Source: Octopus sinensis (Eukaryota). Taken from it: a DNA stretch of 64,000 nucleotides. The first letter of the stretch is position 1. Each line of letters starts with the position of its first letter. The position numbers and the translations under genes were made by a program. Below are positions 5,195-6,374 of the stretch, one piece after another. Location: contig NC_043012.1 of assembly GCF_006345805.1 (NCBI RefSeq), forward strand, positions 20,832,001 to 20,896,000, given 5' to 3'. A model generated the notes under the pieces. That model was not told the origin of the DNA, made no database searches, and saw only the letters and a list, made by a program, of their open reading frames with translations.

Positions 5195-5933
5195 GTACCA
5201 CTGATGCCGTAGATGAGGCATCCTCCAATTTGGGAAATTTTTTAATTATGTATTTTTAACCTTGAAATTTAGTCATCACTTTCTTTTAGAATCTTGACCT
5301 CGAACATCTCTTATCACATAATTTCTATCATATTATTTATGTGTGTAAGTGACTTTTTAGACGATTTAAGCGATTTGCCATTTTAAAATTTACGTTTGTA
5401 TTCCTATATTTATCAACCTCACATTTGTTTTGCACCTCCAATATTTCTCACGCATAACTCCTTACATGTAATTTTTATTTATATGTAATTTTATATGTGT
5501 TTTATATATTTTCTATATTTTCTATATCTGTATCTTTGGTTTTATATTCTTTATACACGTCGAGAATCTTTCTGCCTGTATATACATGATTTATGTTGAT
5601 GTATATAAATATTTATACTTCAACTACAGTGGTTGAATGTTTCATTTATGCGTTCGGGAATCTGTTTGCCTAAACTTTGCATTTTCAATTTTCTCTACTC
5701 TATATATTTTCGCCTTGGCTCACTATGAGCACTCAGTAAACTGCCCATATATTTTTTAATATATTATATATATATTTGCCAACTAAGTGTGGCGTCCTAT
5801 ACAGGACAATGCTATTGATGTTTGTAGCTCCAAGAAGACATCTCCTCCAGCTGGCTAACGACACACATTCTGTGTCCGATTATTATTATTTGCGAGAGGA
5901 GGTCACCTCTCCCATCTCTAGCTTTACGTTATG

Positions 5934-5978
5934 CACGCGGACTCGAGTTTCTGAGTGGTTATCCGTCTTCAGCGTGTG
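5934..5978 (-). ncRNA. Minimal type I hammerhead ribozyme motif with intact core
   Basis: Minus strand reads CACACG-CUGAAGA-C-GGAU-AACC-ACUC-A-GAAAC-UCGA-GUC-CGCGUG: CUGANGA and GAAA boxes, palindromic stem III ACUCGAGU, GUC triplet, stem I 5/6 paired; stem II weak. Confidence 0.7.
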
Positions 5979-6271
5979 TTAATCACCAGCTAGTGAGCTT
6001 ATTCCACCCGCAAATTACTATATATATTTCTAGCGACTCAATATCGCTGATATCGTAGAAGAGAGAGAATGTTATATTAAATCTCTGAGCGATATATAAA
6101 CAGTAGCATGTATTTGCCAACTAAGTGCGGCGTCCTATACAGGATAGTGCAATTGAAGTTTATAGCCCCAGGAAGACATCTCCCCCAGCTAGCTAACACA
6201 AATATCAAACATTTTGTGTCCGATTAGTATTTGCGAGGGGTCATCGTTCCCATCTCTAGCGTTACGTGATG

Positions 6272-6316
6272 CACACGGACTAGAGTTTCTCGGTGGTCAT
6301 ACGCCTTCGGCGTGTG
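6272..6316 (-). ncRNA. Degenerate hammerhead copy 2
   Basis: CACACG-CCGAAGG-CGUAUGACCACCGA-GAAAC-UCUA-GUC-CGUGUG: perfect stem I, mutated core. Confidence 0.55.
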
Positions 6317-6374
6317 TTAATCACCAGCTGGTGATGGGAGCCCATTCCACTCGCAAATAATTATAAATTATTCT

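Follow-up and report, generated by a model that had tools for sequence, protein, structure and literature searches.

The window analysed here, a 64,000-nt stretch of Octopus sinensis DNA, contains a tandem repeat with hammerhead-like motifs. This poses the question whether these motifs are the remains of a self-cleaving mobile RNA and, if so, what kind of element it was and which enzyme moved it. An earlier note on this DNA had described two tandem non-coding units of 338 nt, each with a minimal hammerhead ribozyme. Sequence comparison recovered two direct copies on the minus strand, 338 nt apart, but they amount to only about 1.75 units. Window 5770-6374 (minus strand) comprises one full unit of a dispersed, non-coding repeat, preceded by a unit that is truncated at its 5′ end. 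The full unit (copy 1, 5770-6107) belongs to subfamily A; some 16 nt are missing from its head, and its 3′ boundary is the first of the family's fixed 3′ ends. The truncated upstream unit (copy 2, 6108-6374) makes this a partial tandem, as in Penelope-like insertions. A TA-rich run at the 3′ end of the element (5747-5775) is the likely insertion target, in keeping with the pattern of the family. The truncated 5′ end adjoins a broken transposase remnant (6376-6960, minus strand), seen in translation, which is a neighbour outside the element. We take this remnant to be Tc1/mariner-like from its WPSNSPDCNPLDY-type motif; a Pfam search with a 79-aa piece of it gave no match.

GAAAC, a 4-nt loop and GUC are present in both copies, and C17 lies at positions 5940 and 6278, in agreement with the cuts previously predicted at 5940/5939 and 6278/6277. 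The type I hammerhead of copy 1 (5934-5978, minus strand) retains the core CUGAAGA/GAAA/UC and the stem III palindrome ACUCGAGU. Its description as intact holds for the core but not for the helices: stem I, which had been given as CACACG/CGUGUG, reads CACACG/CGCGUG with one mismatch, and stem II is weakened. A distal stem I helix widens this motif to 5928-5986. In copy 2 (6272-6316, minus strand), stem I is perfect, but the core is broken, as the CUGAAGA-type box reads CCGAAGG (U4C and A9G). Stem II is damaged here as well, the stem III palindrome is broken (UCUA) and the cut at 6278/6277 is a nominal one. With copy 2 broken, the locus lacks the two consecutive complete hammerheads that serve as a criterion for an active locus.

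A descriptor of the core plus stem I matches once in the window and in none of 200 block shuffles, and the stretch has 2734 first-look candidate relatives in the same genome, 40 of which were scored. Together, these two observations argue against a chance motif. An Rfam search of the window returned no hammerhead match at E ≤ 10, and folding of the isolated window motifs was uninformative (z 0.1 to -1.8).

The relatives also set the length of the unit. Over 22 tandem junctions of subfamily A, the median period is 350.5 nt, and the junction at other loci is about 16 nt longer than in the window. The spacing of 338 nt is thus a local junction deletion and not the period of the family, whose units measure about 350-357 nt. 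The missing ~16 nt fall between two short similar motifs, and the two window copies share 9 non-majority letters against a mean of 3.1 in unrelated pairs; both facts would suit a DNA-level duplication of a decaying monomer at this locus, instead of a single reverse-transcription event. We consider such a duplication improbable. Five of the nine shared letters are common subfamily variants, 38 columns differ privately, about as independent decay since insertion predicts, and a 5′-truncated unit followed by a full unit is the usual layout in the family. We therefore keep to a single reverse-transcription event for the window dimer. Its copies differ from the subfamily A majority in 29 of 335 (copy 1) and 36 of 260 columns (copy 2). 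Subfamily A diverges from its column majority by 10.7% (82 segments), and only 13 exact 33-mer subfamily A cores occur in the genome. With about 11% divergence this is an older wave, and the window copies within it are likely dead.

Sister subfamilies, including subfamily B, were found via loose ends in contigs of two sequencing runs. A tight core pattern gave 429 matches against 0 in the control, and a looser one 1756 against 2. One subfamily is young: it has 654 exact cores in the genome, a divergence of 1.1% (127 segments) and a period of 353 nt, with up to 7.8 units per insertion. More than 1.3 units are present in 35 of 59 young insertions, and arrays such as L229 and L230 carry two consecutive complete hammerheads. 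The contigs of the two runs were also considered as a sign of expression and set aside, as they are RNA only by guess, their likeness is 80% and the transposase remnant is covered alike; no run listed for the family is on record as RNA. The looser-pattern list contains further hammerhead-like families with a palindromic stem III (L214, L240, L241, L204 and L242); three of these loci, taken with 3-kb flanks, gave no Penelope RT match.

Conservation was judged from an alignment of 37 copies, the two window copies and the 35 best-preserved ones chosen from 147 of 196 extracted, with eight subfamilies grouped by hand. The core (C3 U4 G5 A6 N7 G8 A9, G12 A13 A14 A15, U16 H17) is kept in the majority of all eight subfamilies, and N7 alone varies. 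It is intact in 105 of 109 young segments and 45 of 82 A copies; in the window, copy 1 has kept it and copy 2 has not. Both-side changes occur in stem I, its distal helix, stem II, the long arm and the stem III palindrome, while stem I is open. The palindrome is preserved through its changes (UCGA, CCGG, UCGG, UGCA). In the named structure 89% of cells are paired, compared with 25-48% in slid controls. Both-side changes number 69 against 26.5 in shuffles, a test that takes no account of relatedness; the count of pairs with a both-side change (12) was not above shuffles (10.6). The family consensus, which the earlier note had named as the test of its own reading, thus keeps its core with covarying stems, and at the level of sequence the proposed decayed genomic copy of a hammerhead-bearing retro-RNA family is borne out.

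The label minimal did not hold up. Minimal hammerheads found in PLEs (Penelope-like elements) show a helix I of 4-5 bp, a helix II of 7-8 bp and an unpaired base between positions 9 and 10.1 (Cervera and de la Pena 2014; PMC4209133). Here, helix I consists of 6 bp, an internal loop and 5 further bp, helix II has 4-5 bp, and the extra base between 9 and 10.1 is absent in the young subfamily. By the definitions in PMC4209133, these helix sizes make the hammerhead canonical. Typical minimal Penelope-type hammerheads (CUGANGA, extra base, GAAACG-UU) occur in other families of the genome (L045 at about 4402; L077, minus strand). Against Rfam, the young motif scores 32.2 bits with RF00163 Hammerhead_1 (E 7.2e-6), 1.8 bits under the gathering score of 34, and Rfam found no hammerhead in a well-kept subfamily A copy. 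The pair 10.1-11.1, which closes stem II, is among the most conserved in hammerheads (PMC3088659). It is C.A in six subfamilies including the window's A, U.U in subfamily D and G-C only in the young subfamily, which suggests that the ribozyme of subfamily A may have been slower. The C.A mismatch did not keep subfamilies A, B, E and F from spreading.

A highly self-paired monomer, a trait of retrozymes, is found in the young subfamily and in the subfamily A majority. Folded as a circle, a young natural monomer reaches z -5.9 and carries its hammerhead at the end of a long arm; the A majority reaches z -5.1. Four folds of natural A monomers from three loci give z -1.7 to -2.8, and the window monomer z -1.1. 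Inserted A copies show no clear post-insertion selection in the form of extra core conservation (5.9% in the core, 7.3% in the flanks). As core and flanks decay at about the same rate, selection would have acted on the source templates and not on the inserted copies.

Non-LTR retrozymes are recognised by tandem copies of a non-coding unit of some 170-400 nt that is low in GC and has a canonical type I hammerhead, all of which the family shows (GC is 42% for the young monomer). The closest known system is the family of the mussel Mytilus galloprovincialis (Cervera and de la Pena 2020, PMC7229834), with which the octopus family shares the canonical type I hammerhead, a non-coding unit (about 350-390 nt in the mussel), low GC, tandems, a highly self-paired predicted circle and coexisting Penelope elements with atypical hammerheads. 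The mussel units yield abundant circles, and Penelope has been called 'a strong candidate' for their mobiliser (PMC7229834). In Mytilus, cleavage and circles have been demonstrated; in the octopus family they are predicted. It also differs from what is described for Mytilus in its dispersed copies, its full set of Penelope signatures, two fusions to Penelope ORFs and its role as a LINE target. In cephalopods, the giant squid genome paper lists 235 Rfam hammerhead matches without analysing them (PMC6962438). Our literature search, which left most subscription papers and Repbase outside its scope, where such repeats may already be annotated, returned no cephalopod retrozyme, retrozyme-Penelope chimera or retrozyme-targeting LINE. 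We thus regard the window locus as a dead copy of what is, by these predicted traits, a genuine non-LTR retrozyme family. The family is a putatively new one and comes with genomic evidence on its mobiliser and on a site-specific parasite LINE. Its interest lies in the young subfamily, the Penelope signatures, the two chimeras and this LINE rather than in the window locus.

How, then, were the units inserted? Their 3′ ends fall at two fixed sites about 52-57 nt apart, neither of which is the cleavage site. This applies to 77 of 113 subfamily A chains (66 loci) and to 86 of 90 young outer ends (59 insertions). (TA)n follows 84 of the 90 young outer 3′ ends, against a background of 8%. The 5′ ends are scattered, with only 7 of 113 within 10 nt of the cut; as they do not cluster at the cleavage site, copying must run through it. 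In 27 of 66 A loci the units form 5′-to-5′ inverted pairs. A second retrozyme copy in the window (16704-17127), of a B-type subfamily, is likewise a 5′-to-5′ inverted pair and terminates in (TA)n. Its hammerhead, at about 16923-16967 (plus strand), is nearly intact.

The retrozyme insertions thus display the traits of EN+ Penelope insertions, namely 5′ truncation, partial tandems, inverted copies, a tail and a microsatellite target. Insertion anatomy of this kind is described as typical of Penelope-like elements (bioRxiv 2021.04.23.441226), and for Anolis Poseidon it was shown in vitro that the tail lies between two internal RT start sites and that the DNA cut is AT-rich (PMC11167929). With Neptune/Nematis-type EN+ PLEs (PMC4209133; bioRxiv 2021.04.23.441226; PMC11167929) the family has in common partial tandems, 5′ truncation, inverted 5′-truncated copies, microsatellite targets, a short tail bounded by two RT start sites and a palindromic stem III. 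It differs from them in having no ORF, canonical instead of minimal helices and a tail of about 52-57 nt instead of 30-40 nt.

A possible source of such a machinery exists in the same genome. A young Penelope family (20427 first-look candidates) has an intact 784-aa frame with RVT_1 and GIY-YIG domains and, as the two are joined by a Cys linker, is Neptune-like. A second Penelope family has 62% protein identity to the first. Both show the two-end, (TA)n pattern, which matches the two RT start sites of Poseidon. Both young families (L082, L233, L290-L300) also carry a hammerhead-like motif of their own, in which U3-A8 replaces C3-G8. It has a CCGG stem III palindrome and lies about 60-110 nt before the element 3′ ends. 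Within the window, 69-830 (plus strand) is a 3′ end of the Neptune-like Penelope family with tail and (TA)n; its U3-A8 hammerhead-like motif, at about 700-735, is decayed.

Within 1.5 kb, 6 of 40 young, 2 of 72 A and 0 of 30 B loci have Penelope RT sequence, and shared targeting of (TA)n can explain part of this proximity. At L233, L177, L251 and L253, retrozyme and Penelope stand side by side; as (TA)n separates them, these loci were rejected as fusions and counted as shared targeting. A Penelope fragment beside L011 was discarded as a parent, being a separate insertion from a family that shares no sequence with the unit. In the composite insertion L233 (about 2900-3100 and 6650-6700), the (TA)n flanks are mutually reverse-complementary, possibly a hairpin element centred on (TA)n.

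Penelope-type ends and targets would also be expected if the units were orphan pseudo-LTRs (pLTRs), that is, 3′ ends of an autonomous Penelope left behind by 5′ truncation. Xenopus offers a precedent: 24 of 57 retrozyme families there match known transposable elements, nearly all of them PLE pLTRs, and vertebrate retrozymes have been argued to be PLE derivatives from co-occurrence and pLTR homology (Li, Clavereau and Pollet, bioRxiv 10.64898/2026.07.22.740005). The octopus family resembles the Xenopus retrozymes of that preprint in its proposed PLE mobilisation and in occurring as dispersed monomers, dimers and multimers. Unlike in Xenopus, comparison with the two Penelope families revealed no homology to their pLTRs, and the case made here is based on insertion anatomy and chimeras. 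Neither of these two families has detectable sequence similarity to the retrozyme unit, and both bear the different U3-A8 motif. Moreover, at 22 subfamily A tandem junctions the end of one unit meets the head of the next and no ORF intervenes, young insertions of up to 7.8 units occur, and an ORF with RT plus GIY-YIG between units is absent, with none of 157 free 5′ flanks matching Penelope RT. Judged by these junctions and flanks and by the two Penelope families compared, we hold an origin as orphan pLTRs to be very improbable. A non-LTR retrozyme that is likely moved by a Penelope protein fits these observations better.

The chimeras speak for this reading. In two of 59 young insertions (L273 and L247), the retrozyme is seamlessly fused to a young Neptune-like Penelope ORF within one (TA)n. 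In L273, the Penelope body, 97-98% identical, begins in (TA)n and breaks off inside the endonuclease domain. Beyond this break, without intervening TA, a retrozyme piece of 62 nt follows in inverted orientation, and after it come 3.6 units, the tail and (TA)n; the remainder of Penelope is absent. In L247, the second Penelope family is involved (98% to other copies): an inverted 3′ arm ends in (TA)n, and an internal ORF piece is joined, with 2 nt of overlap, to 32 nt of inverted retrozyme and a tandem. Most simply, a Penelope RT that carried both RNAs would have switched templates. L288 was rejected as a third case, as the Penelope there is young while the retrozyme copy joined to it is old (79% to the relatives nearest to it). 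These unequal ages imply that seamless junctions can probably also arise by later deletion.

Taken together, we think it likely that the family is a non-LTR retrozyme whose RNA, by predicted self-cleavage, yields monomers of about 355 nt, which are likely circularised and likely copied into (TA)n by a Neptune-like Penelope RT-EN. Read-through transcripts of tandem copies would be cut by paired hammerheads, the palindromic stem III pairing between two ribozymes. The cleaved monomers may then close into a rod-like circle. The Penelope protein would start reverse transcription at one of two stem-loops within the unit, which lie about 165 and 220 nt downstream from the cut, circle the template more than once and often prime both target strands. 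Several observations weigh against this reading: subfamily A has the C.A mismatch and no Rfam match, the young subfamily scores below gathering, the unit resembles neither Penelope family in sequence, Poseidon in vitro does not depend on hammerhead cleavage, and L288 shows a seamless junction of unequal ages.

The form of the template is the point at which a second scenario has to be weighed, in which family and Penelope mobiliser are the same but an uncleaved multimeric read-through transcript is copied and any circles are by-products. A linear monomer is excluded, as copying passes the cleavage site and exceeds one unit. Poseidon inserts unprocessed RNA in vitro, with hammerhead cleavage unnecessary (PMC11167929), and A, B, E and F spread with C.A at 10.1-11.1; both would be compatible with a multimeric template. 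Units of one insertion share 2.3 non-majority letters per unit within a strand and 2.1 across inverted arms, compared with 0.5 between insertions. Ten insertion-private variants are present in every covering unit, five of them on both inverted arms, and such variants occur in 7 of 34 multi-segment insertions. Another eight are found in only some units of an array, which fits copying of a multimeric transcript or later DNA-level homogenisation. On balance, variant sharing appears to lean toward a single circular template. The conservation of core, palindrome and long arm across eight subfamilies and the strong fold of the monomer as a circle also weigh against the uncleaved multimer, to which we give a minor chance.

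To the question of which enzyme mobilises retrozymes in animals, the family contributes the Penelope two-start-site signature and chimeras with young Penelope ORFs. The matched young pair of a retrozyme with 1% divergence and an intact 784-aa RT-EN frame makes this question directly testable in vitro.

The family also appears to serve as a target itself. Several of the 157 free 5′ flanks share the 3′ end of a LINE at one unit position. A search with LINE sequence only gave 948 candidates, 40 of which were scored, and 30 loci. In 12 of these 30, eight of them among 26 newly found loci, the LINE continues straight into the unit at position 130-154. Among 19 extended loci, the 5′ part of the unit lies upstream in 10, six of which end exactly at position 149, and unit sequence flanks the LINE on both sides in 9. 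This arrangement amounts to a 17-bp target duplication whose start is 58 nt ahead of the cut site; the host units come from different subfamilies. In the window, the corresponding site is empty in both copies (5981-5997, minus strand, and 6319-6335). The LINE is about 5 kb long and encodes an RT (RVT_1, E 1e-19) and an APE-like endonuclease, for which the Exo_endo_phos match is weak and below the Pfam cut-off but is accompanied by atlas matches of the same clan. These junctions indicate that an APE/RT LINE inserts at one fixed site just 5′ of the hammerhead.

That the unit directly follows the LINE 3′ end in 12 of 30 loci could also mean that it is a SINE-like passenger of this LINE. In 9 of 19 extended loci, however, the LINE is embedded in the unit, which continues to either side of it with the 17-bp duplication. 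Retrozyme insertions, for their part, lack poly(A) tails and terminate in (TA)n at two fixed sites. The target-site duplications largely refute the passenger reading, which we give next to no credence; the unit is better seen as host than as cargo.

LINEs of the Tx1 clade are known for target specificity toward multicopy elements (PMC4494074). In its traits, the LINE resembles Tx1L in Tx1D, Keno in U2 genes and Tx1-Mar in Mariner-N4 (PMC4494074), with APE and RT, a fixed multicopy site and a target-site duplication. Its target differs, being a retrozyme just 5′ of the hammerhead, and such homing would give site-specific retrotransposons a new class of target. What comes directly after sister LINE copies is another hammerhead-like repeat (8 loci) or a distant relative of the retrozyme unit. 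The other short repeat directly after sister LINE 3′ ends (L324, L326, L333-L335, L338, L351 and L353) ends in (TA)n and has a hammerhead-like motif with an apparent U3-A8 and C4 core and a 6-nt palindromic loop 3.

A wider picture can be drawn only tentatively, and we rate it as possible but doubtful. In a three-tier and still-active system, a circular hammerhead RNA, unlike its helper in sequence, would be rolling-circle copied into (TA)n by a Neptune RT, sometimes in one event with the Penelope's own mRNA. A Tx1-like LINE clade would have specialised on sites just upstream of hammerheads in repeats of this kind, the host ribozyme cutting the LINE read-through RNA 58 nt past its 3′ end and leaving a target-matching tail.

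The window itself holds two fragments, at 26273-25887 (minus strand) and 63697-63981 (plus strand), that resemble the 3′ end of a LINE ORF, presumably one with a Cys/His motif and a restriction-like endonuclease. A 104-nt inverted repeat (7231-7334/7410-7513) resembles the possible hairpin element of L233.
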